Program-made: the position numbers and the translations under genes
The notes under the pieces: generated by a model
Told to the model about the DNA's origin: nothing
Databases searched by the model: none
What the model saw: only the letters and a program-made list of their open reading frames with translations
In this document: in pieces, positions 21,637-60,046 of the stretch
Layout: each line of letters starts with the position of its first letter
Position numbering within the stretch: the stretch's first letter is position 1
Source of the DNA: Octopus sinensis
Lineage: Eukaryota
NCBI RefSeq assembly: GCF_006345805.1
Contig: NC_042997.1
Span: 67,952,001-68,016,000 of the forward strand
Direction of reading: 5' to 3'
Length of the DNA stretch: 64,000 bases

Positions 21637-21682
21637 GACACCTGATGAAGGCTGGAGAGTACATGAGCCGAAACTTTGTGTT
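21637..21682 (+). ncRNA. Minimal type I hammerhead ribozyme motif (degenerate stem III)
   Basis: GACAC-CTGATGA-A-GGCT..AGCC-GAAA-CTTT-GTGTT: stem I GACAC/GTGTT, stem II GGCT/AGCC, intact core. Confidence 0.6.
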
Positions 21683-21776
21683 AACAACAAACAAGATGAG
21701 GACAAATATCCGTCAAATGTAAATATTGTAAATAATCTACATATTTTCTCATCTCTCAAATATAAAACTGTATGCT

Positions 21777-21890
21777 CATATATATTTAAGTGATAAGCTT
21801 TTGGAAAGTTTTACAGACTTTTACAGTTCCAGAAATGGATTTGATCTGTAGTCTTCGAATTAGCTTTCTTCTTTCTGGTTTTGAGAAGCC
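21777..21890 (-). mobile_element. Second short 3'-ORF fragment of the R4/Dong-like family at 19441
   Basis: Near-identical to 19441-19533 (GGAAAGTTTTACAGA..ATCTGTAGTCTTCGAATTA..GGTTTTGAGAAGC). Confidence 0.85.
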
Positions 21891-22081
21891 TCGAGAGATA
21901 GTGGCAGGCAGTGGATGTTTTGGTCTGAGGGAGGCCTGCGTTGCCAAATGGTGCCATAGTTATCATATGCACAGCTGTCCAACGTCCTAAAATCGATTTT
22001 ATTTATTCATCTTTTGTCGTCGTAAGTGCGATTTTATTAATTTGTCTTTTGTCGTCGAAGTTGCATAGGTCGTTAGTTGAG

Positions 22082-22161
<80 letters not shown>

Positions 22162-22228
22162 GTGTGTGTGTGGTGTGTGTGTGTGTGTGTGTGTATGTAT
22201 GCATGTATGCATGTATGTATGTATGTAC

Positions 22229-22272
<44 letters not shown>

Positions 22273-22486
22273 TTGCACGTTGCTTAATCATCGGTATATT
22301 ATTGTTATTTTATATTTAATATTTTTATTATATGCAATTTTCTAGATGGTGTAATTTAATTGTTCATTTTGAATTGATAAAAGGTGTTTTTTTCTAATTT
22401 TTATATATATATTATATTTTGTGAAATTTGATTTAGTATTTCTAAATTGAATTTTCCCCTGTAAGTTAGGAATAATATTCCCTCAA

Positions 22487-22558
<72 letters not shown>

Positions 22559-22564
22559 TATTTG

Positions 22565-22777
22565 CTCTCTTTTACTTGTTTCAGTCATTTGACTGCGGCC
22601 ATGCTGGAGCACCGCCTTTAATCGAGCAACTCGACCCCGGGACTTATTCTTTTGTAAGCCCAGTACTTATTCTATCGGTCACTTTTGCCGAACCGCTAAG
22701 TAACGGGGACATAAACACACCAGCATCGGTTGTCAAGCAATGCTAGGGGGACAAACACAGACACACAAACACACACA

Positions 22778-22823
<46 letters not shown>

Positions 22824-22987
22824 CGACGGGCTTCTTTCAGTTTCCGTCTACCAAATCCACTCACAAGGCTTTGGTCGGCCCGAGGCTATAGTAGAAGACA
22901 CTTGCCCAAGGTGTCACGCAGTGGGACTGAACCCAGAACCATGTGGTTGGTTAGCAAGCTACTTACCACACAGCCACTCCTGCGCCT
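22565..22987 (-). mobile_element. Full-length tRNA-derived SINE (family A) with internal (TA)n and LINE-like 3' tail
   Basis: Head GGCGCAGGAGTGGCTGTGTGGTAAG..GGTTCAGTCCC (A/B boxes). Other copies at 26508, 58566 and 59210. The 3' tail matches the adjacent LINE 3' end. Confidence 0.9.
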
Positions 22988-23018
22988 ATATATATATTTT
23001 TATTTTATATATTTTTTT

Positions 23019-23619
23019 ATTTTATCTAGTTTCAGCTCACGAGCTGTGGCCATGCTGGGGTACCGCCATCTGGTGTTGCTACATGGTTTTATTTCACGAA
23101 TGCTTTTTAGCAACTGCCATTTGGTGCATGAGAGAGTTCGATGCAGCTGCCCTCATCTGCACCTCCTGTCGTGAAGTTGGTTCATCTGGGATACCTGACA
23201 AGAAGAGATCCAGTTTCATTTTAAAGACATCTGCATCCACCCCATGCAGGTCTCTTAGGTTCTTCGGGAGGATATTGAAGAGCTGTGGGCCTCGGAAGCC
23301 CAGGCTATCACAGTATCTTGTCCTACATATTGATGGCAAATTTGGAGTCCTTGGCATCACGCAGTGGCGCCCAGTTCTGGCATTTGTGTAACTCTCGATG
23401 CCAAAGTTTGGGACAAGTCCTTCCAGGATCTTCCAGATGTCTATTATGGCATATCTTTCTCGCCTACGCTCCAAGGAATAGAGTTTTAATCTCTTGAGTC
23501 TTTCCCAGTAGCTTATATGCTGCACAGAGGCTATCTTCTTCGTGTAGCTACGTTGGATCGCCTCAAGTTCTGTGATCAACTTGACACTGGATGGTGACCA
23601 TAGCTGAGAGCAATAGTCA

Positions 23620-23620
<1 letters not shown>
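23019..23620 (-). mobile_element. 5'-truncated CR1/L2-group LINE 3' end
   Basis: DYCSQLWSP..LEAIQRSYTKKI..YWERLKRLKLYSLERRRERY..GPQLFNILP..FKMKLDLFL open to the stop at 23094, then a short 3' UTR. Confidence 0.92.
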
Positions 23621-23687
<67 letters not shown>

Positions 23688-23688
<1 letters not shown>

Positions 23689-24951
23689 GAGGGGCCTTCA
23701 ATACAGTAGAGCAACGAAACTTGGCACAGTTATTAGACTTTTTCTACATAGGAACCACCAAGAGTTACGCATTTCTCGCATCGTTTGATGCAGCTCTGAA
23801 GACCGTTTTTGTAGAAGACCCCAGCTTGGTCCTCCAACCACGACGTGACTTCAGAAATCAAGGCTGCATCATCTGGGAAACGCTTTCCTTTCAAAAACAA
23901 CTTCATGGCTGGGAAGAGGTGAAAATCAGAGGGTGCAAGGTCAGGAGAGTAGGGGGGATGGGGGATGAGTTCATAGCCGCACGACTGTGCTTCTGATCTG
24001 GCGACACGCGAGTTGTGAACCGGAGCGTTGTCCTGCAAGAGGAGGATGCCTTTGCTGATCTTGCCCCGCCTCTTGATTTTGATAGCTTCTCTTAATTTCC
24101 TCAAAAGTGAAGCATAATAGGCTCCTGTAATTGTGGCACCCTTTGCCAGGAAATCTGTCATTAGTACTCCGTCCTGGTCCCAGAAGACTGTGAGCATGAC
24201 CTTGCCAGCAGAGGGCTGCACCCTTGCCTTCTTTGGAGGAGGTGAGTCACGGTGTGTCCACTGCATTGACTGGGCTTTGGTCTCTGGATCATAGTGATGG
24301 ACCCAGGTTTCATCCTGTGTTATCAGTCTTTTGAAAAATTTTGACTCATCTTCTTGGCACATCTCCAAATTCATCCTCGAGCAATCGACACGTTCTTGCT
24401 TCTGGAAAGATGTGAGCAACCTGGGAATCCATCTGGCAGACACCTTTTGCATATGCAAATGGTCATGAATGATAGTTTCCACAGACCCGGTACTAATCTT
24501 GACCTCATGGGCTATTTGGCGAATAGTTATGCGTCGATCTTCCAAAATGGCAGCCTCAACATGATGGACAGATGCCTCATCAATGGGAAAAGGGGGCGAC
24601 CAGATCTGGGAGCTGTTTCCACAGAGTTCCGACCATGTTTGAATTCACGATGCCAGCGTTTTACAAGGTCATATGATGGGGCATCATCACCATAAGTTAC
24701 TTTCATTTCATCAAAAGTCTCCCGTGGTGTGCGTTCTTTCAAATACAAAAACCGGATCACTGCTCGACACTCAACAGGCTCCATTTCACACTCGACTCAG
24801 TTCAAACATCTGTAAATAAGAAACCACAATTAGTTCAGAGCTGTAATTTGCCACTTAATCTATAAAGATATAAATAATTGTACATGCAAAATTTCAGCTA
24901 AATCAAATAACTGCAAGTGGGTCATGAGCATTACTTATTGAACGCCCCTCG
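23688..24951 (-). mobile_element. Near-intact mariner (DD34D) element with one frameshift
   Basis: TIRs CGAGGGGCCTTCAATA / CGAGGGGCGTTCAATA flanked by TA. ORFs 24527..24784 (HTH, SGRP) and 23733..24545 (WIPRLL, DETW, DNAP-34aa-D, YSPDLAPSDF). Confidence 0.97.
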
Positions 24952-25411
24952 TATATATATATATTAAAAACACATTAGCGGGTGCGTTTCTATATAATCT
25001 TCTTACATGTAGAGGAGTTTATTTCACATAACAATAAAGCAAACGCTTTTCATTCTATGGCACTCAACATTTCTTGTTTCTTTTCTTTCCTTTCTGTCTG
25101 TCTCTATATGTCGGTTACTACTTACATACAGCATGCAAATATTTGGAGACTGTGAGCCAACGCTAAAGACAGTCTGAAAAGTGTTTGATCTACTAAAAAA
25201 AGGAATTCGTACTAAGCAAGAAAATTTCAGCAAATGTTCCTGTGTCGGTACTGACTTCAATATGTACATATCTATACAATTTATACTTAATAAACCATGC
25301 ATATAAACGTACAAATGCCTCTACAAATCCACACTAGACATAGATCATATGCATACAAAACACTTACAAACGCATTTGTGTTAGTGTGTGTGTGATCCAT
25401 TTAAGTATAAC

Positions 25412-25457
<46 letters not shown>

Positions 25458-25480
25458 TATTATATATATATATATATATA

Positions 25481-25529
<49 letters not shown>

Positions 25530-26507
25530 GGATATCCGACGGTTTAGACGATGAGCATCCAGTTGTCCAATCAACTGAACTATCTTCTCATTGAATTAGT
25601 GCGCGCGCTTGCATCTCTATATACATTACTTGACCTACTACACTCACGTTACCTTCTGTTCACCATCCTATTAACTTAGTTCTTAGCCACCTTAATTTAA
25701 GTATCTAATTATAAGTGTTTGATCCATTCTGAATAGCATTGAAAAATATGTCCCAGGATGTATGACATTACGAAGGTAAAATGAAGCACCTAACTATATA
25801 ACACTCTTGTGTGTTTTCAGGTAATTAAGGTGTTGCACCTTTACTTTGACAGAAAGAAACCGAGGTGGTGGTGGTGTTGGTGACACATAAATTTTAAAGC
25901 CACTTCTTATTCCTTGTATGGTGACTACAATAGAACGCCTTTGGTGAGTTATCTGTTCTATCAGGGCTAACATGGAAGAGAAAAAAGAGGAGAAGAAGAG
26001 CAAGAAAAAGAACAATAACAACATTGACAACAAAAACAACGCAAAAGTTTGCTACTATTTTTGAATTCAAGTAGGATATAATATCGGAGAGTTGAATAGC
26101 TCTCATACATACATTTTTTTTCAGCTGTCATAACTCTTATATACTTCAAGAAAAAAACAAAGTAATCCCAACACCAGCGACCTATTTGGGAAAGTATCTC
26201 CGAAAGAACGAAAATGAATTCATAAACAGGAAAGTTTTCACTCACAATTACTCTTTATTTGAAATAACAATGTTGACCTAATAACCGGGGCAGTGATATT
26301 AAATTACCCTGGTCGTTTCTTTCCAAATCTAATAACGTACCTCAAGAAACAATAACCACTCAACGCCACTGATGCATACATACATACATACATACATACA
26401 TACATACATACATACATACATACATACATACGCACATACATACATACGCACATACATATATCACTTACATATACCTCGATGTAAGCGTATGCATTGTTGC
26501 GTGGTAT

Positions 26508-26668
26508 AGGCGCAGGAGTGGCTATGTGGTTAAAAAGCTTGCTTCTCAAACAGATGACATTAAGTTCAATTCTACCGCGTGGTAGAGTGTCTTCTGCTGT
26601 CGCTCCAGGGCGACCGAAGCCCTGGCAGTGAATTTCATAGAAATTTTTTCATGAAAAAAGCCCGTCAT
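26508..26668 (+). mobile_element. SINE family A, 5' half (diverged)
   Basis: Homologous to the head of 22565-22987 (GGCGCAGGAGTGGCTATGTGGTTAA..CGACCGAAGCC..AAGCCCGTC). Confidence 0.8.
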
Positions 26669-26735
26669 ATTTGTATGTATGTATGTATGTATGTATGTAT
26701 GTATGTATGTATGTATGTATGTATGTATGTATGTA

Positions 26736-26768
<33 letters not shown>

Positions 26769-26813
26769 ATGTATGTATGTATGTATGTATGTATGTATGT
26801 ATGTATGTACGCT

Positions 26814-27886: not shown

Positions 27887-29169
27887 TCAGGTCATCCCAT
27901 AAGTTCTGTTCGATTTTACCTTTTTTAGAATTGAATGAAATTTAATAGTATTTTAGAATGTCTAATGGAATTAAAAATTATTTTTCTGCATTTGTGTGCA
28001 TTTAAACTAATTAAACATTATTTTACAGAATAATAGAATTCGAATTTCTTTGATTAAAACCCTTTATAACACGGAAGTATCCAAAGAGCATTTAAGGCAC
28101 ATAATGCTTTATGAGCACATAAAATGATTTTGCTGCCGAAGCGACTCGAAACATACACTCAGTTTATGGGAAATAATGTTTGAATGAAAGAACTTGCAGA
28201 AGATGGTTTGCAAAATTCAGAAGTGGAGATTTCAGCCTTGAAGATAGAGATTGAACAGGACGTCCAGTTGAGTTTGATGATAAGCTCCTTGAGGCATTAC
28301 TTGAAGAAAATCCTGCATTATCAGTTGAAGAATTGGCAACAAAGCTTAGTTAAAACCATACAACTGTTCATCGTCATCTTCAACAACTTGGAAATGTTCC
28401 TAAACCTGGAAATTGGGTGCCTCATGAATTGTCCGAAAGCAACCGCAAATCCCGAGTCGACATCTGCTCTTCTCTCCATTTTCGTGAACTCATTTCACCC
28501 TTTTTGTATAGACTTATGACTGGTGACGAAAAATGGATCTTCTATCGAAATGTTAAACGTCGTAAACAGTGGTTTGGTAAAAGGGAAAAAGCTCAACCAC
28601 AACAGAGAAGGGAACTTCATGGAAAAAAGGGTCTTCTCTCTATCTGGTAGGATTGCAAAGGAATAATTCACTTAGAATTGTTACCACCTAATGCAACAGT
28701 CAATGCTCAATTCTAGTGTCAGCAATTAGAGCGTTTGAACCAAGCTTTGAAGAAAAAAGACCCGCTTTAGTGAATCGAGAGCGAGTGATGTTTCATCAGG
28801 ACAACGTGACCCCACACTGCAAATATCACATCACAGAAGATCGAAGAGCTCGGTTGGGAAAAAATTCTTCCTCAACCTTATTCTCTCGACCTTGTTCCTT
28901 CAGACTACCATTTGTTTCGTAGTTCACAGAATCATTTGAGAGACATAACTTTCGCAAGCCAGGAGGAGGTCGAAACTGACATTTCAGAGTTCTTCGCTTT
29001 GAAACCAAAAGAGTTTTACATTGATGGGATTAAAAAGCTTGTAAATAGACGGAAGGAAGTAATAGATAACCAGGGAAAGTACATTGATGATTAAATTTCA
29101 ATTAAATATAACATTTGATCACTTGTTTTCTTTATTCAAAATTTGGACAGAACTTATGGGATGACCTGA
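27887..29169 (+). mobile_element. Full-length degenerate mariner (DD34D) element
   Basis: TIRs TCAGGTCATCCCATAAGTTCTGT / ACAGAACTTATGGGATGACCTGA with TA on both sides. Motifs WVPHEL, TGDEKW, FHQDN and YSLDLVPSDYHLF. Confidence 0.95.
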
Positions 29170-30452: not shown

Positions 30453-30453
<1 letters not shown>

Positions 30454-30771
30454 GACAATACAAAGAGCATGATGCGATCGCAATAGATACTTTATTGGTT
30501 GAACGATATTTCGACAGCAAACCTCTCTTTGTCGAGTGCAAAATGAAAAGTGAAAAAATTCAAAATTATAGAAATTCAAATCTAAAATATAAACGAGATC
30601 AACCAGCGTCCACAAGATGATGGAATGACATCATCCATTTCAATTTTACAACTGGCAAAAAGAAAAAAAAAAAGAAAAAAGCGAAACAAAAGAAGAGGAA
30701 AGCAAAAGAAAAGGAAAAAGAAGACTATTTAATCAAACAGTTTTGTGCAAATTTGTTGAAATTCTGTCATT

Positions 30772-32640
30772 TTATTCGTTCATCCAGGGCGTGATAATAA
30801 TCCGCAAACATTTCTCCTGATGCATTTTGAGCACTGAAATTGTAGATGATTCAGAATATTTTCTGAGAATATGCACTTTCAAGTCTTTTTCAAAATTATT
30901 GCCGTTTGATGCAAAATGTTCAGCAAGTTCTGTCGAACTACTGTTCTTGTGCCAGACGTCATATCTGTGCCCATTGAATCTTTTGTTTAATTGTTCTGTT
31001 GTACAACCAACACAAATCAAGTTGTGTTTCGTGAATTTTGCTGCGTACACCAAATGGGAATCTCTACATGTCCTGCCTTCTGTATAAATCATAACATTTC
31101 TGTTATGATTCCTGATGAGATTCACTTGAATCATGTTGTTGCATAATGAACAGTGCTTATCTGTCTTGCGACTATTTTCCAAGGTACAGCTTGAAGATAC
31201 TCCAATGGTAGATTTCTTGGAGTCAGAAGTAGAGGTTAATAGTTCTCTTATATTTTCATTCCCTCTAAAGGCTACAATAGGCGGCTGAGGAAATATTTGT
31301 TTGAAACGAGTATATTTTCCCTCAACATGCAGGTAACTTTCATGCAACACTTTTGAAATGCCAGCAAAATTTTGGAGCCAGTTGATCACTAAACGTATTC
31401 TGTCACATTTTGTACTGTGTTTGCTAAAATTATCCATGAAGGTTTGACTTTCTTTGCTAATCGTAGCTATGTCATTTGCTATTTTCCTTTAATGGTATAG
31501 AAAAGTATTTGCATGTTTCCAGTAATCTCCTATGTCCGTACAAATCCGTTTTATCCTCAAAAATTGGGATTTCCGATTTGATCGGATTATATGATGTGGA
31601 TGATCAGAACGGCGGTAGAGGTAAATGTGAGATGACATGGGTTTGCAGAAGAACTCTGCCACTATTCTACTTCCAGAAAACTTAATTTTTGTGTCCAAAA
31701 ATACAATGCTAGTTTATGGAAAACTAGACGTAAATTATATGTTGGACTTAAAGCCATAGTTTTTAGTATAACAGTCACAGAAATGCAAGAATTCAACTAA
31801 ATTGTCTTGTGATCCTTCCCAGACAAAAAAGACGTCATCAATGAACCGTAACCAGACTATTGGTTCATGACCATGTAGGAGTTTGAATGTTTTCAGTAAC
31901 TGTGTCTCGAATTTCATCATGAAGACATTAGCGAAATTAACCGCCATGGGGGTACCCATGGCGCAACCCCTCGTGTGGTGGTAAAATTTATGTCCAAACT
32001 TCATTGTGTTACTTTGTAACACAAATCTCAATAACCTACAGGGAAAATTTGATAAAATATTTTTGTTTGACTGTTTTTTGAAGACATTCATGTATGCTTC
32101 TACCCCTTCATCGTGGTCAATATAGGGATATAAAGAAGAAACATCCATGGTTACCAAAAAACAGTTTTCGACATGGCTTCGGTGTTTAAAAAAGCTGTTG
32201 ATTTCAAACAGAAGATCAAAAGTATTCCGAATATAGGAACTTGGTCTTTTTCCGACAGTCATCCAGCCACTCCGAAATTTTAGCTGTACAACATTCATAT
32301 CCGCTGAAACTTATGCGCATTGGAGAAAATCTTTCGAACTGTTTGTATATGTTGGGGAGACCATAACATACAGGTGTTCTTTCTGACTGTTAAATCCTGG
32401 ATTTGGCCTTATCAATGAAATTGTTTTCCTCCGTTTCCAGAATTATTTTGTAACTTCCTCTCTGTAATTAGGGTTTGGACCGAGAGGTAATGTTTCATAT
32501 GAAGTTTTGTCATTTAAAACTTCTTCACAAGTCGAATATACTCACTCCAATGATAGTTTTCTCGGAGTCAGAAGTAGAGGTTAATAGTTCTCATATATTT
32601 TTTATTCCGTCTTGGTGGGGGAAGTTTATTTCATTGGATA
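30772..32640 (-). mobile_element. Penelope-like element: RT + GIY-YIG endonuclease (frameshifted)
   Basis: LVTMDVSSLYPYI, GCAMGTPMAVNFANVFM and WLRFIDDVFFVW (RT); PPIVAFR, CxxC and LVY..C(Y)VGCT..LNKRFNGHR..LAEHF (GIY-YIG). About 60 bp of the linker is duplicated at ~32545-32605. Confidence 0.93.
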
Positions 32641-32694: not shown

Positions 32695-33115
32695 AGTGAA
32701 TCGATAGTGCCTTGCGTAGGATGTGGGCTGTTCTTAGTAGGGCTATTTTTTTGGATAAAGTGTAATGTTGCGGATCCAGGTATAGCTTCTACGTTTTTGC
32801 TCATATGTCTTTTTTTTTATCATGCCCAATGATCCAGTTATTATTGGTATTGTTTTCACCTTCATAGCCCACAACTTGAATCCTTCAATTTCGAGGACAT
32901 TGTACTTTGACAATCTCTTCACTTCGTTTTGGACAATATTTTGATCAGAAGGGATTTCAAGGTTTATCAGTAAACAAGTGTTTTTTCCTAATCCTGGATT
33001 ATTATGTCTAGGGGATTAGCTTTTATTTCTTTGTATGTTTGAACCGGCATAGCCCAGATAATTCTGGCCTGGTCATTGTCTTGTACCTCATTTGGCACAT
33101 GTTTATATAATCTAT
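32695..33115 (-). mobile_element. R4/Dong-like LINE 3' end (degenerate)
   Basis: Minus-strand IKANPLDIII, LSKYNVLEIE, TIPIITGSLG and ALLRTAHILRKAL; homologous to 21131-21450. Confidence 0.85.
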
Positions 33116-33171
33116 TATCAGTTTTAATGTAGTATTGGCATATGGTCCTGTGGATAACAACAACAACAACA

Positions 33172-33244
<73 letters not shown>

Positions 33245-33249
33245 TAAAT

Positions 33250-33445
33250 GCGGCGAGGTGGTAGAACCGTTACCACGACGAGTAAAAAGCGTAGCGGCAT
33301 TTCCTCCATCTTTACGTCTTGAGGCTGACTTTGCCTTTAACCCTTTTGGGAATCGGTGAAGTAAGGAGCAGTTGAGCACTGGTATCGATATAATACACTT
33401 GTTCTTTGCGCCGAAAGTGCAGGCCTTGTGCCGAGATTTGAAACC
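33250..33445 (+). mobile_element. SINE family B (diverged copy)
   Basis: GCGGCGAGGTGGTAGAACCGTT head and GACTTTGCCTTT..GGCCTTGTGCC body; reverse complement of the copies at 53187 and 57241. Confidence 0.7.
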
Positions 33446-33473
33446 ACCACCACTACTACTACAACAACTACTA

Positions 33474-33526
<53 letters not shown>

Positions 33527-34494
33527 TATGTAAATGTTGCCGAGCTAAGAAAGAATGGTACTCAGTTTAGTAAATGAAAGAAGTAGCTTTTTATGTCTTT
33601 GAGTTCTAACAGAAGTGCCTTAATCCGTTAAGTCGCGATCTCATTCCGAAGTAGAAAGGCTCGTCTTTGACATTGTATTTCTCAATGCCTTTTATTTTAA
33701 AAGTGACCTTTGGAATTGTTATATTTTTCTTAAAATAGCAACATCAGTGGTGACAGTCAGAAGTGCTTGTCACAATAGCAGATGTTTAATAGCAAAAAAG
33801 CAACTCCCTCTTCAAATACAAACAAATACATTTGAAAATGATACATGGTAAAATATCTGAATAAATAAACAATAATACAAAGAGGAATAGTTAAACAAAA
33901 AAAAAATATAGTGTTAAAATGATCAAACTGAACAACACAGTGAAAACAGTCGAAATAATGGTAATTGTTTTCAATATAGGCTCAAGGTCAATGATTTCGA
34001 AGGGAAGACACTAGTTGTTTCTATCGCCCCAAGTATTGGACGTGTATTTTGTTTTATCGACGTTAGAAGAATGGAGTCACAAGATAAGCACCAGCCTGCC
34101 ACAATATATCACAGAAGACCGCGGGAGGAGACAAATAATCTACACGTGCTTTCTTAAGATCATCGGATCTTTTCTTGTTACTTGTACGAGATGGAATCAG
34201 CTCTGGCACACACTTTAATTGAAATCCCCCACTCTGTATGTATCCACCCTTAATCCCCTACTGCGGGAACAGCAAATGCTGAGGGATAACCCTCGCGAAC
34301 TACGATGTGGAAAAACCGTGTCAGCTTAGGCGGACAACGTTTCCGTCATAATGTCAGACATTAAAAATCACCGGTGATTGGTAATGCTCTAAGGGACTAC
34401 GGGGCGGTGACAGAAGTCAATGTCAGTGGGCCTGCATCTCGGTAACTAGAAAGGCAGGCCAATTCCGTCGAAGTGTGTCATGGGTCGCAAGATT

Positions 34495-36330
34495 TATGAA
34501 GCAATTAAATTACTCGGAATCTGGTTTGATGGGCCTTTCTTCCCACATCGGTAACCCATCTTAACTTTCCCAAGTGTCATTGTTATGGGTATAGGTGAAA
34601 TTACAAATAGTAACGGAGAAAGCGTGTCACCTTGGAAGATGCCCCTTTTAATATTAGCTTCTCCAAGGAATACATTACTTGAGTACAATTTGGTTTTCCA
34701 TTGTCATGCTATGCAGCAGAAAATTTGTGATGTTATCAGCAACACCAAACATCAGCAGGCATTCAACGATCCAAGAATGAGGCATCATATCATATGCCTT
34801 CTTAAAGTCAATCCAAGCTATAGATATGTTTGTATGATGTTTTTTTACAATGCCTCAAAACTGTTTTATCGATGACCAGGTGATCCTTGGTACCCTGAAA
34901 ACTCTTCCTACACCCTTTTTGTTCCATTGGTAGTATTTCCTCCTGTGCCAGGAAAGTGTATGTCTTTGCCGCACATATTCCAGTGATTATCTTCCAGATT
35001 ATGTTTAGGCATACTATGGGACGGTAATTTTCCACAATATTACCCTTACTTTCATTAAAAGTGTTGTCCTTCCAGTCATCATCCACGCGGCGACTGTACC
35101 TTTCTGGATACACTCATTCAACTGGGCTGCTAGTCTTTCATGCACCACGTGGCATTTCCTCAGCCAGAAGCCATGAATCCCATCTGGTCTGGGTGCTTTC
35201 CAATTAGCCACTTTACCCACTTGCTCTTTCACATTACCCGTACTTATGACAATATTCCTTTGTTTCTTTTCTCCTTGTAATTCTGTCTTGATAGTTCCTA
35301 TCCACATTGCATCCCTTTTATACATCACATTGTTTCCCTATAATTCGTTCCAGAACTCATTGGCTTGATTTGCAGCAGGAACAACATTTTCCCCATCGTC
35401 TCTGTGTAACATTCGGAAGAATTGATTTGGGTTATTTTTGAACAATCTGTTCTCGAACTGCTTATTTCTGTTCACAAATCTTTTTGTCCTGATCCTCTGT
35501 TTTAACTGCTCTGCTACAGCATCAAACCCGTTCTTCCGTATTTTATATTTCTTCTCTAATTTTTCTTGGTCGGTCTTTTTCACATTTTTCCAGTTTCCTC
35601 TTAACCATTGCTCAGTTTTTCCTAGATCTTGCCTTACTCGCATTATGTCACTTTCAGTATGTCCTTTCCACCATGGTTCTTTTGCTCCGCCATTTTTTGT
35701 TCTCTTAAGTTATAATTTCTCCTCAACAAGTAGTGCAATAGCTCGAAGATTCTTTGTTTGTGTTATGTCCTTCGTCTGGAAGTATGGTATGACAGTATTT
35801 ATCCTTTGTGTTACTTTATTTATCATACTCCTATCTATCTACCCTTTTTTTCTTCTTCTGGAGCATTTATCAAGTTGGCGAGTCGTCTTTGAATTTCAAG
35901 CAATTCATTATCTAGTTGTTTCATTTCCCCTGCATGTCCACCCACCACATTATCAGGGTTCACTGTATAATGTTCCTGTTCCTCATCCTTTCTATGTTCC
36001 TCTTGTCTATTCTTCTCTCTGCTTTCAAGTCCGACCATGCTTTGTACTCCATCGGCAGGGTCTCTCAGACTCTCACTAATCAGATACTTCTCTCTATATA
36101 TATAACGTGCTTGTATTGAGTCGCCTCTATAACCACAGTGTTTATCATTATTACCATCGTTCTACCTATAGCATTTATAAATATCAATAATAATATGGCA
36201 CCTGGTATATTGTAGCAGATCTTTGTCACTATCAAATACTCGCCAAGCGTTCTCCTTTCACTCCTTATACAATGGTCTATACTAATTAGTCCTCTGCCAC
36301 TATTCTTTCTTTTCATATACAGTCTGTTTA
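34495..36330 (-). mobile_element. R4/Dong-like LINE: N-terminal region and RT first half, plus a displaced post-RT fragment
   Basis: NWKAPRPDGIHGFW, MTGRTTLL, NYRPIVCLNIIWK, EQKGCRK..GTKDHLVID and RGIFQGDTLSPLLF. The segment ~36200-36330 encodes RLYMKRKNSGRGLISI. Confidence 0.92.
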
Positions 36331-41831: not shown

Positions 41832-42365
41832 AAGCAAAATAGCTTGTTATGAAATCTCAAGAAGATATAGAGTAGTAACGTATATTAAACAGTAAAGTGA
41901 GTAGCCACATCTAAGTGGTAGATGAATGTTACTACTAACGCGGCTAAGGATGAGTCAATTGGCTCGAAACTGGGCTAGTTCCGCGATCCTGTTAGCTGCT
42001 GAAGTGTAGTAGGGGTTCGCTCCTCTTGTTAGCGGTGTGTTGTATATAAAGGGTGCAGAGCTTGCACCGAAAACCAGCTGGCAGAGAGTCCGCCTGGGTT
42101 TAAACTAGTAGTAACATTCAACTGCCCTTTGATGTGGCTACTCACTTTACTGTTTAGTATACGTTATTTCTCTATCCCTTCCTGAGATTTTATAACTAGC
42201 TATTTTGCTTGTTGCGAATCAGTGACCGATGGTCACTTTGTTTACAATATATCGCTGGCAGAAACATATCTTAGCTATCCCTCCACTGTTGCTGCTGGAG
42301 TGTAGTAAAGGTTCGTCCTCCCTGACCGATAGCTACTTTGTTTCCAATACATCGCTGGCGGATCT
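41832..42365. mobile_element. Non-coding hammerhead-bearing element with ~80-bp inverted duplication (retrozyme/Penelope pLTR-like)
   Basis: 41832-41910 is the reverse complement of 42131-42210. HHR motif at 41939-41985. A second copy of the family lies at 43630-43885. Confidence 0.65.
41939..41985 (+). ncRNA. Type I hammerhead ribozyme motif (G5A mutated)
   Basis: CGCGG-CTAAGGA-T-GAGTCAATTGGCTC-GAAA-CTGGGCTAG-TT-CCGCG: stems I, II and III can all pair. Confidence 0.65.
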
Positions 42366-43629: not shown

Positions 43630-43885
43630 AATCCTCGCTGGCAGAATCGGATCTTAGCTATCACTCAACTGCGCAGGTGCGCGTGGGTGAATATGACCCA
43701 AATAGCTCGAAATTGGACCAGTCCCGCGATCCTGTTAGCTGCCGGAGTGTAGTAGGGGTTCGTTCCCCTTGCTAAAGAATGCAGAGCTTGCACCGAAAAC
43801 CAGCTGGTGGCGAATCCGCCTGTGGTTAAACTAGTTGTAACATTCAACTGCCACTATTATGTAGCTATTCGTCTTACTGTTTGTA
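43630..43885 (+). mobile_element. Second, more decayed copy of the 41.9-kb hammerhead element
   Basis: Aligns with 41939-42160 (GCTCGAAA..CCGCGATCCTGTTAGCTGC..GCAGAGCTTGCACCGAAAACCAGCTGG) and with 42250-42290. Confidence 0.75.
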
Positions 43886-45732: not shown

Positions 45733-46749
45733 CATATACATACACATACACATACACACATATATATGCATATATGTATACACGTGTGTATATATGTGTG
45801 GATATATATTATATACATGTATAGAAATATCTATATATATTATATTATACACACAAGGACGCGTCCCCATGCACACCTACGCGTGAGTACACGTATATTC
45901 CGTTAGCCTTAATCTTTCTCTCAAATTTTAAGTATGGATTCAGAATTTCTTTCTTTCTTTCTTTCCATCCAAGTCTTACTTCAGTTTCTCATTGTATTTC
46001 ACTGTTTTCGCTCTTCATCAATTCTTCTCTTCTATCCAGTCGCTTCCCTTCCATTCATTCGCCACATGATGTCCATCTGTTCTCGCGATTTTCTGTAAAG
46101 ATAATTGTAATTCTTCACAAAAATAGTTCTAATCAATATGTCTCAATTTGAAAGAAAAACGGAAAGAAAATTGGGAGAGCGAGAGAGAGATAGAGAGAGA
46201 GAGAGAGAGAAAGTGACAGTGAGCGAGAACGGGAAAGACAGAGAGAAATGGGGAGAGAGATGGAGATATATATATATAGAGAGAGAGAGAGAAGGAGAGA
46301 GAGGGAGAGAGAAAGTGATATAGAGCTAGAGGGAAAGAGAGAGAGAGGGAGATATGGGAAAAGAGATAGAGATGGAGAGAAAGAGTTAGAGAGAGAAAGA
46401 ATTAGATATTAATAGTCTGAGAAAGAGGAATGTATATTAAGAATATGACGTATTATGGGAAACTGGGTAGAATTAGGTGAGATGCAGAGGGAAAAGTTGA
46501 AATGGAGGAAAAGTGAGTGAGAGGGTGAGAGAGAAAGCGGCGTGAAAGAGAAATATAGTTTGAAAGAAAAAAAAGGATAGAAAGGGAATATTTGTGATTG
46601 AAAGAGTTTCAGAAAGAAAGGGGAGAGAGAGTTTCAGGACAGTATATAGGGGAAGATGTATGTATGTATGTATGTATGTATGTATGTATGTATGTGTGTG
46701 TGTGCGTGTGCATATATATATATATATAATATATATATATATATCATCA

Positions 46750-47598
46750 ATCGCACATGCTTAATGTATGTTTCGTTTGTTCGCCAGATTCGCTGCGGGA
46801 TAGCGCATAGGAACAACTCCTGCTAACGCTGGGTGTTAAGACAGTTGAAAGTCATGATCAGAAGAGAAAACTCGCCTCGGGTCGAATTCAGGAGTGATGG
46901 ATGCTGATATATTGCCATATTCGTGACTTATCAATGTTGCGTGCATGAATCGAACCGGGGACGAATCGAATCGACAGTCTATGACTATATATAAATAGGG
47001 TAAGAACCATTTGCTGATCTGCCACAGCGATGCACATGTGAGATCAAATTCAATAAAATATTAAAAGCAGTTCTGGTGGTGTATATATAATCGAGTGCAC
47101 ATACTCAATGTATGTATTTTGTTTGTTTGCCGGATTCACTGCAAGATAGCGCTTGGGGACGACCCCTGTTAACGCTGGGTGTTAAAACATCTGAAAGTCA
47201 TGAGTAAGAGAAACCACTTACCTCGGATCGAATTCAGGAACGATGAATATACGGTAGATAATGTTTACCTCACTAGCGCTGCTTTTAATTTATTATTGAA
47301 TTTAATCTTACATGTGCATCGCCGTGGCACATCAGCAAATGGCTCTTACACGACTTATGTATAGTCATAGATTGGAAATTCGATTTGTCCCAGGTTCGAT
47401 TTAGGTATGTGATGTTGATGACCCACAAAAATGGCGAAACATCGGTGTCCATCAATCGTGAATTCGATCCAAGACGAGTTGTCTCGCTTGTCTATAACAT
47501 TCTGGTATTTTAACATCCAACTTTATGAGGGAGCTGTGCCACAAGCGTTATTCTGCAGCGAACTGGCGAGTAAACAAAACATACATTATGTGCGATCA
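46750..47598. mobile_element. Non-coding element: 344-nt monomer + partial tandem copy + inverted copy, with hammerhead motif
   Basis: GCACAT..AATGTATG starts at 46753 and 47097. The segment 47270-47598 is the reverse complement of 46750-47078. Confidence 0.8.
47410..47454 (+). ncRNA. Type I hammerhead ribozyme motif (C3U)
   Basis: TGATG-TTGATGA-CCCACAAAAATGGC-GAAA-CATCGGTG-TC-CATCA: stem I TGATG/CATCA, near-palindromic stem III, GUC site. Confidence 0.65.
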
Positions 47599-47778
47599 AT
47601 AATATTTATACCAATAGCGTTATTGGTTATTGAATGCACACACGCGTGCGCGCGTAGCCCTTTTGTAGCTTACTTTGTACCTTCCCGCATTATTCTGGCC
47701 TTACACAAAAAAATCTCTTTACACACACACACACGTATATATATATGTGTGTGTGTATGTATATAGATGTGTGTGTGT

Positions 47779-52907: not shown

Positions 52908-52948
<41 letters not shown>
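52540..52948. repeat. Long degenerate (TA)n array
   Basis: Seen directly; it explains several spurious YI-rich ORFs. Confidence 0.95.
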
Positions 52949-52950
<2 letters not shown>

Positions 52951-53063
52951 ACCACGCTGGAAATAGCAGTCAAAACTTGACTCTAAAGTCACATTAAATG
53001 TTTATACAGCACCAGGAGACAAAACAAAGAAACGAAATAAACTAGCAAAAAACTAAGTGGATA

Positions 53064-53122
53064 ATTCCAGATCCCGGATTTCTGACTTTGCATAAGAAAT
53101 GCTTTGCCTTCATCAGTGGAAT
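53064..53122 (-). ncRNA. Minimal type I hammerhead ribozyme motif
   Basis: Minus strand: ATTCCA-CTGATGA-AGGC..GTCA-GAAA-TCCGGGA-TC-TGGAAT; 6-bp stem I, near-palindromic stem III, AUC site, weak stem II. Confidence 0.65.
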
Positions 53123-53186
53123 ACACTCAGATAGCACATAAGTACAAATATATATATAGATATATATATAGATATATATATATATA

Positions 53187-53444: not shown

Positions 53445-53759
53445 AAAAATACAAAACACGTCTTAATATACACGCATAACCAACTTTTATATTTTACATA
53501 TTACATCACTGTACATAAATCCCCTACTAAACAAGGTCTTTTTTTAAAACCTGTCTCTTTTCTGTACACATATTTATTCCCCACCCATTACCAAAACCTG
53601 AACAGCTATCTCCCTTACACACAACAATAACAATAATAACAACCAATTACTTCCCTTTATTTGTCTACTTGTGAAGTCATTCACTCGTGAATTTCATCAC
53701 ACCCAACATGGACCAAATTTCTTCTTAAGAAAAAATATATATTCATATAAATTAAACAT

Positions 53760-53796
53760 TATATCATGAATAGCGACAGCGAAACCGGTCGATATA
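53760..53796 (+). ncRNA. Minimal type I hammerhead ribozyme variant (A3-U8)
   Basis: TATATC-ATGAATA-GCGACAGC-GAAA-CCGG-TC-GATATA: stem I TATATC/GATATA, stem II GC/GC with a tetraloop, palindromic ACCGGT stem III, GUC site. Confidence 0.65.
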
Positions 53797-54189
53797 TTAA
53801 AAATTATATTAAAACCATGTAAGTGTGCGTATTTTTTAAAAAATTTCTTATATATATATATATATATATATTGAAAAATATAAAACACGTCTTAATATGC
53901 ACGCATAACCAACTTTTATATTTTTACATGTTACATCACTGTACATAAATCCCCTACTAAACAAGGTCTTTTTTTAAAACCTGTCTCTTTTCTGTACACA
54001 TATTTATTCCCCACCCATTACCAAAACCTGAACAGCTATCTGCCTTACACACAACAATAACAATAGTAACAACCAATTACCTCCCTTTATCTGTCTACTT
54101 GTGAAGTCATTCACTCGTGAATTTCATCACAACCAACATGCACCAAATTTCTTCTTAAGAAAAAATATATATTCATATAAATTCAACAC

Positions 54190-54220
54190 ATCATGAATAG
54201 CGATAGCGAAACCGGTCGAT
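54190..54220 (+). ncRNA. Second copy of the A3-U8 hammerhead variant (stem I shortened)
   Basis: ATC-ATGAATA-GCGATAGC-GAAA-CCGG-TC-GAT. Confidence 0.55.
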
Positions 54221-54292
54221 ATATTAAAAATTATATTAAAACCATGTAAGTGTGCGTATTTTTCTTTTTTAATTTCTTATATATATATGTAT

Positions 54293-54664: not shown

Positions 54665-54910
54665 TATATATATAATATTAATTTAATTTTTTATTTTTTA
54701 TTTTTTATTTTTTATTTTTTATTTTTTACTTTTTATTTTTTACTTTTTATTAAAATTTTATGTATTGATTAAGTCTTTCCTTGTTTGTTTTGCAAAATAG
54801 TGGTTTTGTCTCTAATTAATATTATATAATATTTTACTATAAAATTGGATTTAATCCTAAATCTGATTTTTTTCCCTGTAAATTTGGATTTATTCCCTAA
54901 TATTTATTAT

Positions 54911-54955
<45 letters not shown>

Positions 54956-55059
54956 ACATACGATATACTTACATACACGAACGTATACATACATATATAT
55001 ACACGTATGTACACGACCAGTTTAAATTGCTCGCCTTAAAACAGCTCATTGATATTCGC

Positions 55060-55575
55060 GTGGAGGGACCTAGTCGATGGTCAAATGGTACTTATTTCAT
55101 TGACCCCGAACAGAAGAATGGTAAAATCCATCTCGGTGTGTTAACGATTCGGCCAGATCATCGTCTTTCGTATGGGTGAATAATGGTTTCCAATTTTTTC
55201 ATGATGCCAGCAATTTTCGAGGTGGAGTAAGTCAATCCTGGTGCTCAAGTGGTAATTATTTTTTCGACCCTAAAAGGATAAAACACAAAGTCGACTTCGG
55301 CGGAATTTGAGCTCAGAACGTGATGACGAACGAAATGCTCCTATGCATTTCGTCCGGCGGGCTAACGATTCTGACAGCTCGCCGCCTCTTACAGTTAAAT
55401 AATTCCTTTCTATTAAAGGCATAAGGACTGAAATTTTGGGGAAGGGGACTAGTCGATTATATTGACCCCACCGCTTGAATCGCACTTGATTTATAGACCC
55501 AAGAAAGGATAAAGGGCAAAGCGGAATTTGAACTCAGAACGTAAATGCTATCGATTCTACTCACTCACCGCCTTG
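55060..55575 (-). mobile_element. Cluster of 2-3 diverged SINE family B copies
   Basis: Repeated GACCCC.AAAGGAT.AAA..CAAAG..CGGAATTTGA.CTCAGAACG blocks. Confidence 0.8.
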
Positions 55576-55953
55576 TGCAGTTAAGTGATGCAAAGTCAAA
55601 TATAACACAAAAGTTGAAGATAAAATGTATTACGTCTACAATGGTAAAAATGCTTGGAAGAGTGAAAATTAGTAAAACAGAAAGTTGAACGTAAAGATTT
55701 TGAAATATAGCGATAAACAATTCATTACTTGACAAAAGGGAATTGTAAAGAAAAAGCCTAAGCAAATATGACGTCAATGTGACAATCGAAAAAGTAAAAT
55801 ACATAGATAATATGATGACTATATTAAGCAGACGCAAACATAGTTACGCGCGTGCATGCACATACACACGTCGGTGCAAGCAGGCGCACATACATATAAT
55901 GCATATATATGTATTTATGAATCTCTCTCTCTCCTTCTCTGTATATATACATA

Positions 55954-56311
55954 CAGGGTGATTCAAAAGTCTCCATACATAGGAAAAATTTATTTTTCTA
56001 TAAGTAACTTTTATAAGATCCTCTAGATCCCTCTTGGTTTCTATCTTTGGGGGCATTTGAAAGGCATGGTGTATCACGGAAAGATAAAAGGCATAAATCA
56101 TTTGAAGGAACGCTTCACCAACTCATTTGCAGACGCATCATCAGATGTGCTATTACGAGTTCACAATGTGTGGGGTAAGTGTATTGCAACGTATATTCAA
56201 AACAATGGTAACCATATAGAGCCTGATAAATAAAAAAAAAAGTATTCTTATAAACAGTTTCTTATAAAAAGATAAATTATTCCTATGTATGGCGACTTTT
56301 GAATCACCCTG
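55954..56311 (+). mobile_element. MITE-like deletion derivative of a rosa-like Tc1/mariner element
   Basis: ~50-bp TIRs CAGGGTGATTCAAAAGTC.CCATACATAGGAA with TA on both sides. The interior encodes the transposase C-terminus FYLWGHLKGMVY..NNGNHIE. Confidence 0.92.
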
Positions 56312-56320
56312 TATATATAT

Positions 56321-56905
56321 ATTAAAAGAGGTTACTAAAATGACAAATAGTATTGACTAGCACCACTTTTGCTAAAAATAAGAGTTAAAATAATTTAAAG
56401 CCACAAAAGCACTGAACTTAATGACTGATAAAGGGAGGTAAGTCCATTGCGCACATAGCCGGATCGCGATTTCAGATTTTGATGTAGACCATCTTAATCT
56501 TCATCAGCGGCAATTAACGCCAAGAGTCACCTACCTCTATCAGTCTTATAAGAAAAACCATATTAAAAAGGGTGGCTTATCAGTAATTAGAACCTAAAGG
56601 CAAAATTAATAGAGGTCACAAAAGTGACAGGGTTTTGACTAGCACCACTTTTGCTAAAAATAAGAGTTAAAATAACTCAAAGCTACAAAAGCACTGAACT
56701 GAACGACTGATAAAGGGAGGTAAGTCCCCAGCGTATATAGCCGGATCGCGATTTCGGATTTTGATAGTGCTTTTGTGGCTTTGAGTTTTTTTAACTCATT
56801 TTTTTTTTAGCAAAAGCGGTGCTAGTCAGTACCATCTATCACTTTTGTGACCTCTATTAATTTTACATTAGGGTTCTAATTGCTAATAAGCCACCCTTTT
56901 TAAGT
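56321..56905 (-). mobile_element. Retrozyme-like element: 282-nt tandem unit plus inverted partial copy
   Basis: GCCGGATCGCGATTTC occurs at 56458 and 56740. The segment 56766-56902 is the reverse complement of ~56565-56695. Confidence 0.85.
56458..56511 (-). ncRNA. Intact minimal type I hammerhead ribozyme
   Basis: Minus strand: GCCG-CTGATGA-AGATT(aaGATGgtctaCATCaa)AATCT-GAAA-TCGCGA-TC-CGGC; perfect core, palindromic ATCGCGAT stem III, AUC site. Confidence 0.85.
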
Positions 56906-56929
56906 TGTTATATATATATATATTTATAA

Positions 56930-56994
<65 letters not shown>

Positions 56995-57077
56995 ATATAT
57001 ATTGTCATTAATCCAAAGAAGTGGAATTACTGAAGGAATGAAGAAATTCAACTGAAAATGTACAAAGAATATATTAT

Positions 57078-57473
57078 TTTCTACTCTAGGCACAAGGCCC
57101 GAAATTATTGGGGAGGGGTCCAGTTAATTAGATCGACCCCAGGACGCAACTGGTACTTAATTCATTGACCCCGAAAGGATGAAAGGCAAAGTCGACCACG
57201 GCGTAATTTGAACACAGAACGTAAAGACAAAAAAAAATACCTATTTCTTTACTACCCACAAGGGGCTAAACACAGAGAGGACAAACAATGACAGACAAAC
57301 GGATTAAGTCGATTATATCGACCCCAGTGCGTAACTGGTACTTATTTAATCGACCCCGAATGGATGAAAGACAAAGTCGACCTCGGCGGAATTTGAACTC
57401 AGAACGTAACGGCAGACGAAATACGGTTCCGCATTTCGCCCGGCGTGCTAACGTTTCTGCCAGCTCGCCGCCT
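57078..57473 (-). mobile_element. Two adjacent SINE family B copies (one full-length at 57241-57473, one partial)
   Basis: Near-identical to 53187-53414. Confidence 0.88.
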
Positions 57474-58469
57474 TGTACAAAAAATATATAATTAATTAGG
57501 TATCACTGGCTTTGTTTATAAGACGGTGATTCTAGGAGTTCTGGTTTGCTGCGTTACCGTTTATATTTCTCTGTTGAATATAATGATATTCATATCATAC
57601 AATATCATAAATCCGCTTCAAGCGATTTTACCAATCAAGAACTTGAGGGGAAAACGCAATTCTATCACTGGTCAGAAGGGTTGGCATGAAGAGTATGCCG
57701 AAGGCAGTATGTTATTGGAAGTCAGAAACTATCGCATCTCAGAGTTAGGTCTCTCCTAAGCCCATGCAGTATGTGACCGTTCGACACTTTTATATTGACA
57801 ACGTTTCGAACGTATGTGTTAGGTATTTCATAAGATATTATTTCATAGATCTACTTATTAATTGGTGGCAAGACCACAGCATTTCGTTTTGTAGCCATAA
57901 TATTCTACCAAGTTTATTACAGATTTACAAATCAATATTGTGTCTTAATTTTTGTTAGCAGTGCGATGTTTTCACTTTTAAGTTTGTTGATTTTATACAT
58001 GTACGTACCAGTTGCTAGGAATGTGTTTAATATGCAAATTGGTCTATCCAACAGTGTTAGACCACTGAACTCGATGGATGGTGATGATGAAAGAATAATA
58101 ACTTTTGAAATATGCATTATCTACTTTTCTATCTTCGATCGGGTCGTTTGCATAGAAGCATTTGTTTACGAAAAGCAATAATTTCCAGTGTTGGCTTTGA
58201 ATCCTATAGAAAATCTATTGACATAAACTCAGAAAAACATAGATTTACTAAACAAGAAGTTCTCCTTAACTGCCCTTTGATCTCTATAGACTCGAAGCGA
58301 TGGCAATATCGAAAGGGGCGAATGGCTGCACACTCGATAGCTTAGGAAAAGTCTAACTCATAACCTGAAAGATGTAGCACTTGCTGGTGAATAGTGGCAG
58401 AGAGACAGTGCCGTATATATCCCATTAGATCTTCTGATGAGTGTCGGTATTTGTTTTTTTTTCTATCTA

Positions 58470-58556
<87 letters not shown>

Positions 58557-58565
58557 TATATATAC

Positions 58566-58728
58566 AGGCGCAGGAGTGGCTGTGTGGGAAGTAGCTTGCT
58601 TACCAGCCACATGGTTCTGGGTTCAGTCCCACTGCGTGACACCTTGCGCAAGTGCCTTCTACTATAGCATCAGGCCGACCAAAGCCATGTGAGTGGATTT
58701 CGTAGACGGAAACTGAAAGAAGCACGTC

Positions 58729-58730
<2 letters not shown>
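58566..58730 (+). mobile_element. SINE family A, 5' half
   Basis: Near-identical to the reverse complement of 22823-22987. Confidence 0.88.
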
Positions 58731-58780
<50 letters not shown>

Positions 58781-59304
58781 GTGTGTGTGGTGGAATGCAT
58801 ACACGCGCACGTAAGCATACAAACAGACACAAACTTACAAATTTGTTGAAGTAATGTAAAAAAAATGCTGTTATAAAACCTTAAATATTCGCACCTGTTA
58901 CATATAGTATAAGAAATAATGATTAATAAAACCGCGACATTTACAGGTAGGAAGCTAAATATTATTACGACATCTGTCGGATATTTTGCTTTTCCACAAC
59001 GAAAACTCATTCTTACGCATACACATAATCACATAGAAATTGACAGCTTTTCTCCGTCTCACTCTCACAGCTATTTCTATCAATATATGCGCGCGTGGTG
59101 TTGTATGAATATGTCCATACACACACACAGACACGCGCGAGCGCACACGTATATGTATGTGCGTGTGTATGTGTGTGTGCGTGTGTGTATGTTTGCCTTT
59201 GTGCATGTATGCTGTGTGGTAAGAAATTTTCTTTCTAACGACATGGTTTCGAGTGACACCTTGTAAGTGGATTTGATAGACAGACACTGAAAGAAGCCAG
59301 TCGT

Positions 59305-59359
<55 letters not shown>

Positions 59360-59363
59360 TATA

Positions 59364-59411
<48 letters not shown>

Positions 59412-59691
59412 TTATATATATATATGAAAGAAGTGTTGAAAATGCAATTTTAAAAGATGTTTATTACTTGACCGGTTCACTTTTTTAGAAAAAGATGTCA
59501 AAAGTAACATGTAAAAGCTTGGTTGTTTTAGGTACTGTTGGTACATGTCACAAAAATTACAATATATATATACATTCTTTAAATCTAAAGTTCACCTTGT
59601 TTTATGTATCATATCGATAGATATCTGTATTTTTATATTTAAATATTTAGAATTTTTATATCAGGTTTATATCAGTTTTAGAAATGTAGAA

Positions 59692-59772
<81 letters not shown>

Positions 59773-60046
59773 TATATACTTGATTTTGTCTGTGTTATTA
59801 CTGATGTTCCTCTAGTTTCCGCTTGCATTGCCTCCATTCAGATTATTAAGCGGTATATATATACCAGAGTAAGCACATAAATGTGAGACAAGGTGGAGAA
59901 AATTGTACTCGAATACCAGAGGTAGAGTAATATGCTTTATTCATAAAGCTGCAGAGACATTACAAAGACTGTCACTCAGAGTCTCATGTTTCCCTTCGTC
60001 GGATCGTGAAACTCTGCGTAACAGCTTTTGTGATGTCTTTGAAACC

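Follow-up and report, generated by a model that had tools for sequence, protein, structure and literature searches.

Type I hammerhead ribozymes have been described in two kinds of animal element that resemble the repeats analysed here. The first are Penelope-like elements (PLEs), which encode a reverse transcriptase (RT) and a GIY-YIG endonuclease and whose pseudo-long terminal repeats (pLTRs) carry hammerheads with a palindromic stem III, mostly in solo truncated copies (Cervera & de la Pena 2014, PMC4209133); the linker motifs of PLE clades are described in PMC8557442. The second are the non-LTR retrozymes, which are non-coding, have less than 50% G+C, carry a type I hammerhead, occur as monomers and dimers and are found together with PLEs (Cervera & de la Pena 2020, PMC7229834; Li, Clavereau & Pollet 2026, bioRxiv). 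For cephalopods, the giant squid genome paper gives 235 hammerhead matches, and 190 families annotated as PLEs occupy 6.83% of the O. vulgaris genome (PMC13282606 supplement). The words 'octopus' and 'cephalopod' were not found in the main text of PMC7229834, nor was an octopus hammerhead ribozyme found, judged by titles and abstract beginnings, among the papers listed in a literature search. The sequence analysed here, referred to as the window, is a stretch of 64,000 nt of the 2.72-Gb genome of Octopus sinensis (contig NC_042997.1, positions 67,952,001 to 68,016,000); it has 36% G+C, is rich in microsatellites and had been flagged at ten positions for hammerhead-bearing repeats.

The initial annotation of the window tied these repeats to PLEs, and this link holds: a hammerhead-like motif is present at all ten positions and each is a member of a dispersed family. 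The general claim is already in print (PMC4209133, PMC7229834 and bioRxiv 10.64898/2026.07.22.740005). We consider it probable that the motifs are mostly decayed copies of eight families, four of which (A, F, G and H) represent tails of PLEs truncated at the 5' end while the other four (B, C, D and E) are closed units likely copied in trans.

Eight families and their hammerhead cores

The ten motifs belong to families A (21637), B (41939 and 43682), C (47410), D (53064), E (56458), F (53760 and 54190), G (59464) and H (59970). In each search, 40 candidates were scored out of 362 to 4494 first-look candidates, figures which are not copy numbers. Copies were compared with the type I core N3-U4-G5-A6-N7-N8-A9 ... 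GAAA ... UH, in which positions 3 and 8 pair and stems I and II form, and intact copies were found for all eight families. Counted by column, the core is conserved in A (C3 in 40/43 copies, G8 in 42/43), B (C3 24/26, G8 20/26), C (U3 24/26, A8 22/26), D (C3 32/33, G8 30/33), E (C3 28/40, G8 37/40), F (A3 24/25, U8 25/25) and G (U3 22/22, A8 21/22); in H conservation is visible in intact copies, which have cores CCGACGA or CTGATGA. Because G and H as families retain the core, the motifs at 59464 and ca. 59970, previously set apart as weaker, are decayed copies of real families.

Damage in the window affects family A (stem III ACGT changed to ACTT), both B copies (G5A in the first and a mismatched 3:8 pair in the second), C (10.1-11.1 pair broken), the second F copy (stem I cut to 3 bp), G (two 1-nt deletions) and H (a fold-back in which GAAA reads GAGA). 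A strict descriptor of the type I hammerhead, which requires a 3:8 pair, at least 2 bp in stem II, at least 4 bp in stem I and a palindromic stem III, passes three of the ten copies, with cores at 53116 (minus strand), 53766 (plus strand) and 56507 (minus strand), the chance expectation being a mean of 0.15 matches per simulated window (20 first-order Markov simulations of the microsatellite-stripped window). Of the 195 Rfam matches for the window, 150 were listed; nearly all of these were microsatellite-driven and none was to a hammerhead model. No Rfam hammerhead model matched at gathering score in 20 loci spanning all eight families, and the best B copy, which is intact (L091), matched HH9 with 21.8 bits (E 0.0014), under the gathering score of 52. 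The hammerhead fold was not obtained when the three intact copies in the window were folded to minimum energy. The stem III palindromes pair with themselves as duplexes (-1.7 to -10.1 kcal/mol); singly they give no hairpin.

Hammerhead families in this genome use all four Watson-Crick pairs at 3:8, and this usage, including A3:U8, may be new. Families A, B, D, E and H carry C3:G8, family F carries A3:U8, and C and G share U3:A8 with the family of a PLE remnant at 30772 (see below). The U3:A8 variant has been published (PMC4209133, PMC3088659) and is a point of likeness with the pLTRs, as is the extra nucleotide that follows A9 in family A; A3:U8 and G3:C8, in contrast, are not mentioned in the available text of PMC4209133, and the term A3-U8 was not found in a full-text literature search of limited coverage. 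The change U4C is known in a viroid (PMC3088659). G3:C8 was observed in an additional family (core GTGAACA ... GAA AATATT T) with a 5-bp stem II and inverted partners, whose nine copies were seen solely in flanks outside the window (L158, L218, L249, L266 and L306).

Stem III is palindromic or near-palindromic across the flagged motifs, as had been noted, but only the hammerheads of A, F and G are of the minimal type attributed to the set. Those of B to E are not minimal, since their stems III can form 2-4 bp, which is also the case in H. Given the short palindromic stem III of A, F and G, cleavage of these ribozymes is predicted only as a dimer. A run of the strict descriptor on 454 fetched loci (1.47 Mb) found 158 distinct matches in 50 core/stem III classes, many of them outside the eight families, which points to far more hammerhead families in the genome.

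Families A, F, G and H as tails of Penelope-like elements

Families A, F, G and H are the 3' ends of coding PLEs. They share this position at the end of an RT/GIY-YIG element with the pLTR hammerheads of PMC4209133, as does the 30772 family, and differ from them by the tRNA-like head of A and by 3' untranslated regions (UTRs) of up to ca. 2 kb. For family A, 30 loci were fetched, of which 24 could be oriented; in 23 of these the endonuclease stop gives way to the tail, and homologues of the parent open reading frame (ORF) carry RVT_1 and PF26215. A homologue of one element's ORF is on record as an Octopus sinensis protein (73% identity). In family F, a PLE ORF with Pfam domains GIY-YIG (5e-5) and RVT_1 (2e-4) lies upstream in sense in 19/24 loci. 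The window F pair (53450..54258, plus strand) consists of two 3' ends of a coding PLE located 430 nt apart and displays a CX2CxxC linker; its first copy carries the intact minimal hammerhead with the A3:U8 core (53760-53796, plus strand) and the second, at 54190, one with a shortened stem I. What had been described as a 428-nt non-coding tandem unit opens here with the last codons of the endonuclease ORF (IEKYKTRLNIHA*).

In family G, upstream walking led to 3/24 loci in which a GIY-YIG piece and the G UTR lie on one collinear stretch of ca. 1.3 kb with ca. 77% identity; one of them, L449, extends to the G tail, and the parent UTR measures ca. 2 kb. The window tail, a PLE 3' end of this U3:A8 family, occupies 59425..59537 (minus strand, core at 59501). 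For family H, locus L353 connects an ORF resembling RT-thumb and endonuclease with the H UTR, and the module upstream of H was found downstream of the ORF in 8/25 endonuclease-selected loci, seven times at 1.2-1.4 kb. This ORF was identified by motif and Atlas neighbours only, the latter including GIY-YIG clusters (11% and 27% of members), and its having no Pfam match weighs against the assignment. In the window, the H tail, a PLE 3' end with a long UTR, is a fold-back at 59864..60043 (minus strand, core CCGACGA at 60002). Judged by linker motifs, A is probably Poseidon-type, F and G Neptune-type and H Hydra-type.

Copies of these families end as PLE tails do, with a fixed 3' end, 5' truncation and, except in F, an adjoining inverted copy. 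Upstream inverted copies occur in 14/25 loci of A, 4/24 of B, 4/23 of C, 4/25 of D, 10/26 of E, 0/24 of F and 5/19 of G; the 17/20 loci of H were obtained with a query that is itself a fold-back. Inverted partial copies, which the initial annotation reported for several elements, were seen in all families but F. Such ends would be explained if the PLE RT/GIY-YIG protein primes at AT-rich or microsatellite targets (PMC4209133, PMC7229834, PMC8557442) and leaves copies that are 5'-truncated, often inverted and partially tandem. The elements at 21637 and 53760/54190, listed among six main non-coding elements, are 5'-truncated tails of coding PLEs. More generally, the set proves to be solo pLTRs of autonomous PLEs as far as A, F, G and H are concerned, and the description as non-autonomous and retrozyme-like suits B, C, D and E.

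In family A the short copies share their 3' end with the autonomous partner, whose 3' UTR makes up the unit in full, and this UTR contains a further feature that had been overlooked. Ca. 30 nt past the endonuclease stop lies a 75-nt tRNA-like stretch (the head), found in 22/24 oriented ORF-linked loci, in which A box and B box are spaced by 34 nt. Aligned with 27 tRNA sequences of the octopus genome (limited to Arg, Lys, Thr, Cys, Phe and Ala), it scores best against tRNA-Arg(TCT), reaching 58 (z 7.2), while the highest score among 300 shuffles was 47. In the window the head is found at 20866..20944 (plus strand, first G at 20870), followed by the internal (AAT)n of the family (20945..21599, plus strand) and by the tail, the PLE 3' end (21599..21772, plus strand), with its minimal hammerhead at 21637-21682 (core 21642). 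Head and tail are parted by the 3' end of a long interspersed element (LINE) inserted in the (AAT)n at ca. 21130-21547, and a similar insertion occurs in L232. We take this LINE to be of the Dong/R4-like restriction-endonuclease type; remnants of the same type were observed at 19444-20860 (minus strand), 21130-21547 (plus strand) and 32746-36161 (minus strand).

The 5' ends of A copies pile up at this head. They fall within -15..+5 of it in 16/32 and 21/35 matches of two samples, and of 30 loci picked by genome position, 29 of which could be placed, 19 begin at -10..0 (rough binomial 1e-11) and 6 reach at least 40 nt upstream. Exact genome counts gave 3041 for the head start versus 937 for ca. 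-27..-8 and 1030 for ca. -46..-27. This pile-up suggests a transcript from the Penelope tail that resembles a short interspersed element (SINE). Its simplest and likely explanation would be that RNA polymerase III (Pol III) transcribes the tail and the parent copies the transcript: the A/B-box head would direct a SINE-like RNA of ca. 300 nt, which the parent's enzymes would copy as a second route beside that of ordinary tails. We tentatively propose that a coding PLE may have taken up a tRNA gene within its 3' UTR and may now emit, from its own interior, a Pol III-made hammerhead SINE that outnumbers longer parent copies by ca. 2:1.

Several observations weigh against this proposal. Neither ARAGORN nor the Rfam covariance test called the A head a tRNA, the step in the exact counts compares different motifs, of which that of the head permits two CpG variants, and the sample of A copies required position 0 to be present. 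It is also quite possible that the pile-up does not mark a Pol III start: reverse transcription may stop here, the RNA may be processed at this site, or the CATATG palindrome may be a hotspot of template switching. An inverted partner accompanies 14/30 sampled A copies, and CATATG/CCC microhomology is seen at many junctions. Yet copies in which no inverted tail was detected also end at -7..0 (e.g. L455, L461, L465, L467, L468, L470 and L474), and the ends coincide with the 5' edge of the head, where a Pol III start is expected. Moreover, the A and B boxes are retained while the acceptor stem required by RNase P appears to be gone, and no TTTT terminator was present in the three complete A copies checked.

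The proposed Pol III route of family A can be compared with two known systems. Like schistosome SM-alpha and Sj-alpha (PMC6765202), A would have a Pol III-type promoter followed by a hammerhead; it differs in that its head forms part of the 3' UTR of a coding PLE visible in the genome, its hammerhead is minimal and its copies are dispersed. With the octopus SINEs OK, OR1 and OR2 (Ohshima & Okada 1994, cited in PMC4758252), it shares a tRNA-derived head, and it could overlap one of them or one of 893 unclassified recently active SINE families (PMC13282606). The A/B-box head behind an endonuclease stop may be a new detail, a search of a limited library of literature having turned up no tRNA-headed Penelope tail. 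B-box-like GGTTCGA motifs also precede the ribozymes of C and A (at 47389-47398 and 21618-21630, respectively), at a distance of ca. 15-25 nt.

Families B to E as candidate retrozymes

Families B, C, D and E have the features of closed, non-coding units of 320-570 nt, and we regard them as candidate non-LTR retrozymes with predicted non-minimal hammerheads. Closure is indicated by the ribozyme being preceded by the unit's own downstream sequence at the same offsets in independent loci: 350 and 356 nt in B (also a shorter 272), 343, 344, 347 and 350 nt in four loci of C (also a shorter 268), and 566 and 569 nt in D, whose monomer is thus 566-569 nt. In E, a direct repeat was found in 11/26 loci, mostly of 320-340 nt, with shorter ones of 282-313 nt. 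Both 5' cores are present one unit apart in D (L151) and in E (L003, L004 and L008), the descriptor having listed one per pair. As had been stated for these elements, the four units are unrelated, with no mutual similarity longer than 20 nt.

The 3' ends of B to E copies cluster ca. 140-250 nt past the predicted cut at AT-rich spots, often against (TA)n (positions beyond 450 in D were set aside as artefacts of (TA)n matching), so that the inserted template extends beyond the cut site. Natural monomers folded as circles gave z < -2 relative to shuffles in 6/13 cases, the best values being -6.6 for B, -3.8 for C and -6.2 and -4.6 for D. The copies are old, with 70-88% identity to the window copy in B, C and E and ca. 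90% in D. We suggest that multimer transcripts would be cleaved by the hammerhead, closed by a host ligase and copied in trans by Penelope enzymes; a multimer or circle as template would explain copies that exceed one unit.

These four families agree with the retrozymes of PMC7229834 and of Li, Clavereau & Pollet in all the traits listed above. The D unit (567 nt) exceeds the 150-450 bp of PMC7229834 but lies inside the 51-972 bp of the preprint. They differ in that no sister pLTR was found for B to E and that they are known here as DNA copies without long arrays.

Part of the evidence does not favour closed units. Paired cores were seen in D and E only, so that closure in B and C is read from offsets; dimers were found and no long arrays; and 7/13 monomers fold unremarkably (z above -2), E giving weak values (-0.8 to -2.3). 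No PLE tail resembling B to E was found in 153 ORF-linked loci. PLE protein matches near the units are rare (2/24 loci in B, 1/23 in C, 0/25 in D and 1/26 in E) and none is continuous with a unit, but the same test (14 query fragments, 1.5-kb flanks) was also negative for G (1/19) and H (1/20), which later proved to be PLE tails. Since it missed those parents, it is closure that carries the argument for B to E.

A conceivable but improbable alternative is that B to E, like the other four families, are coding-PLE tails whose apparent closure arose from partial tandems, their long parents being unsampled. The G and H parents were indeed hidden behind UTRs of 1.3-2 kb, the window F pair is just such a partial tandem, and the sample per family comprises just 23-26 loci. 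Against this, the unit lengths of B to E recur in independent loci and copies overrun the usual 3' end into pre-ribozyme sequence, whereas the tandems of F, A and H are single cases of arbitrary length (430, 291 and 719, respectively). Spread of B to E at the DNA level, by satellite-like amplification or by movement as miniature inverted-repeat transposable elements (MITEs) with hammerheads as passengers, would accommodate the inverted-repeat structures and the old, decayed copies (70-92% identity to window copies); it is nevertheless very unlikely, because the copies are truncated to varying degrees at the 5' end, prefer certain 3' ends, have inverted copies upstream and lie at (TA)n targets, all of which matches the PLE pattern of PMC8557442. 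Finally, that all eight are independent non-autonomous retrozyme-like elements is hardly credible: the majority of copies are indeed short and non-coding with PLE-type ends, but ORF-to-tail continuity is direct for A, F and G and supported by co-linearity for H, which refutes this reading for A and F and strongly disfavours it for G and H.

In the window, family B is represented by an inverted piece (41833-41938) followed by one 350-nt unit that starts at the hammerhead 41939-41985 (41833..42288 in all, plus strand) and by a second copy with a damaged core (43635..43881, plus strand; hammerhead 43682-43728). Loop 2 of this family (CAAAUA) presumably resembles that of the schistosome ribozyme. 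In the B alignment, 14/26 copies are 1 nt shorter near core position 9, which may indicate subfamilies, and many are also 1 nt shorter in loop 3. Family C (46746..47608, plus strand) consists of an inverted copy (46746-47249) and a sense copy (47252-47608) with the damaged hammerhead of this U3:A8 family at 47409-47455. Family D occurs as a fragment (52948..53145, minus strand) with an intact hammerhead at 53064-53122; a second fragment without ribozyme was observed at 54954-55040. Many divergent pieces covering part of the D unit lie in contigs of four runs guessed to be RNA, which has no bearing on expression or circles, and no contig set on record as RNA was listed among the holders of the sequence. 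Family E (56322..56896, minus strand) comprises a partial tandem (56322-56765) with an intact hammerhead at 56458-56511 and an inverted piece (56809-56896). Its 282-nt unit, taken earlier as the lower limit of tandem units of 282-428 nt, is a deleted monomer, the true E unit being 320-340 nt.

Penelope remnants, neighbouring repeats and implications

Four Penelope remnants had been proposed in the window (2950, 4277, 30772 and 61395) as sources of mobilising proteins. All four bear the expected motifs, Pfam confirms only that at 30772, and no flagged family could be traced to any of them as parent. The 30772 remnant (30453..32310, minus strand) comprises an RT (31738-32310; RVT_1, E 6e-10), a GIY-YIG region (30775-31488) matched weakly (E 0.11) and its own decayed hammerhead (30453-30552, minus strand, core 30535), which has an ATAT stem III and belongs to a family with a U3:A8 core. 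This element was considered as parent of a flagged family and rejected, its family having a different hammerhead of its own. The RT remnants at 2797..4995 (minus strand), with a thumb-like part (2797-3207) and a DKG motif and RT core (4280-4995) recognised by eye, have 35% identity to the F-parent RT (E 6e-15); neither they nor the endonuclease C-terminal remnant at 61395..61651 (minus strand) has a Pfam match. The latter, which we assume to belong to the Hydra-type clade, was tried as parent of H and rejected, 18 relatives matching the family references only via an A insertion (L400).

Other repeats were observed nearby. A 121-nt minisatellite (13650-14365; 5.9 copies, 95% matches) contains no hammerhead in the strict scan. 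Mariner-type transposase remnants were recognised by eye at 23736-24796 (minus strand), one with a 303-codon open stretch, and at 14618-15386, 17101-17367, 28354-29091 and 60514-60902. A near-perfect, MITE-like hairpin with arms of ca. 70 nt (61824-61975) gave a spurious sub-cut-off match to MIR847.

These data add octopus members to two published kinds of element, the hammerheads of PLE tails and the non-LTR retrozymes. Existing libraries probably contain the tails of these four PLE-linked families (A, F, G and H) already, since 190 PLE families are annotated in O. vulgaris. Descriptors fixed on C3:G8 or U3:A8 would miss families such as F, and hammerhead censuses may therefore undercount. 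Family D, which has many intact predicted ribozymes, is a candidate cephalopod circular RNA. In family A, parent and derivative stand in one genome, which bears on promoter gain and on the PLE origin of retrozymes and hammerhead SINEs; if the Pol III route proposed above is true, A would show at an intermediate stage how SINEs and retrozymes that depend on Penelope, such as schistosome SM-alpha, come into being.

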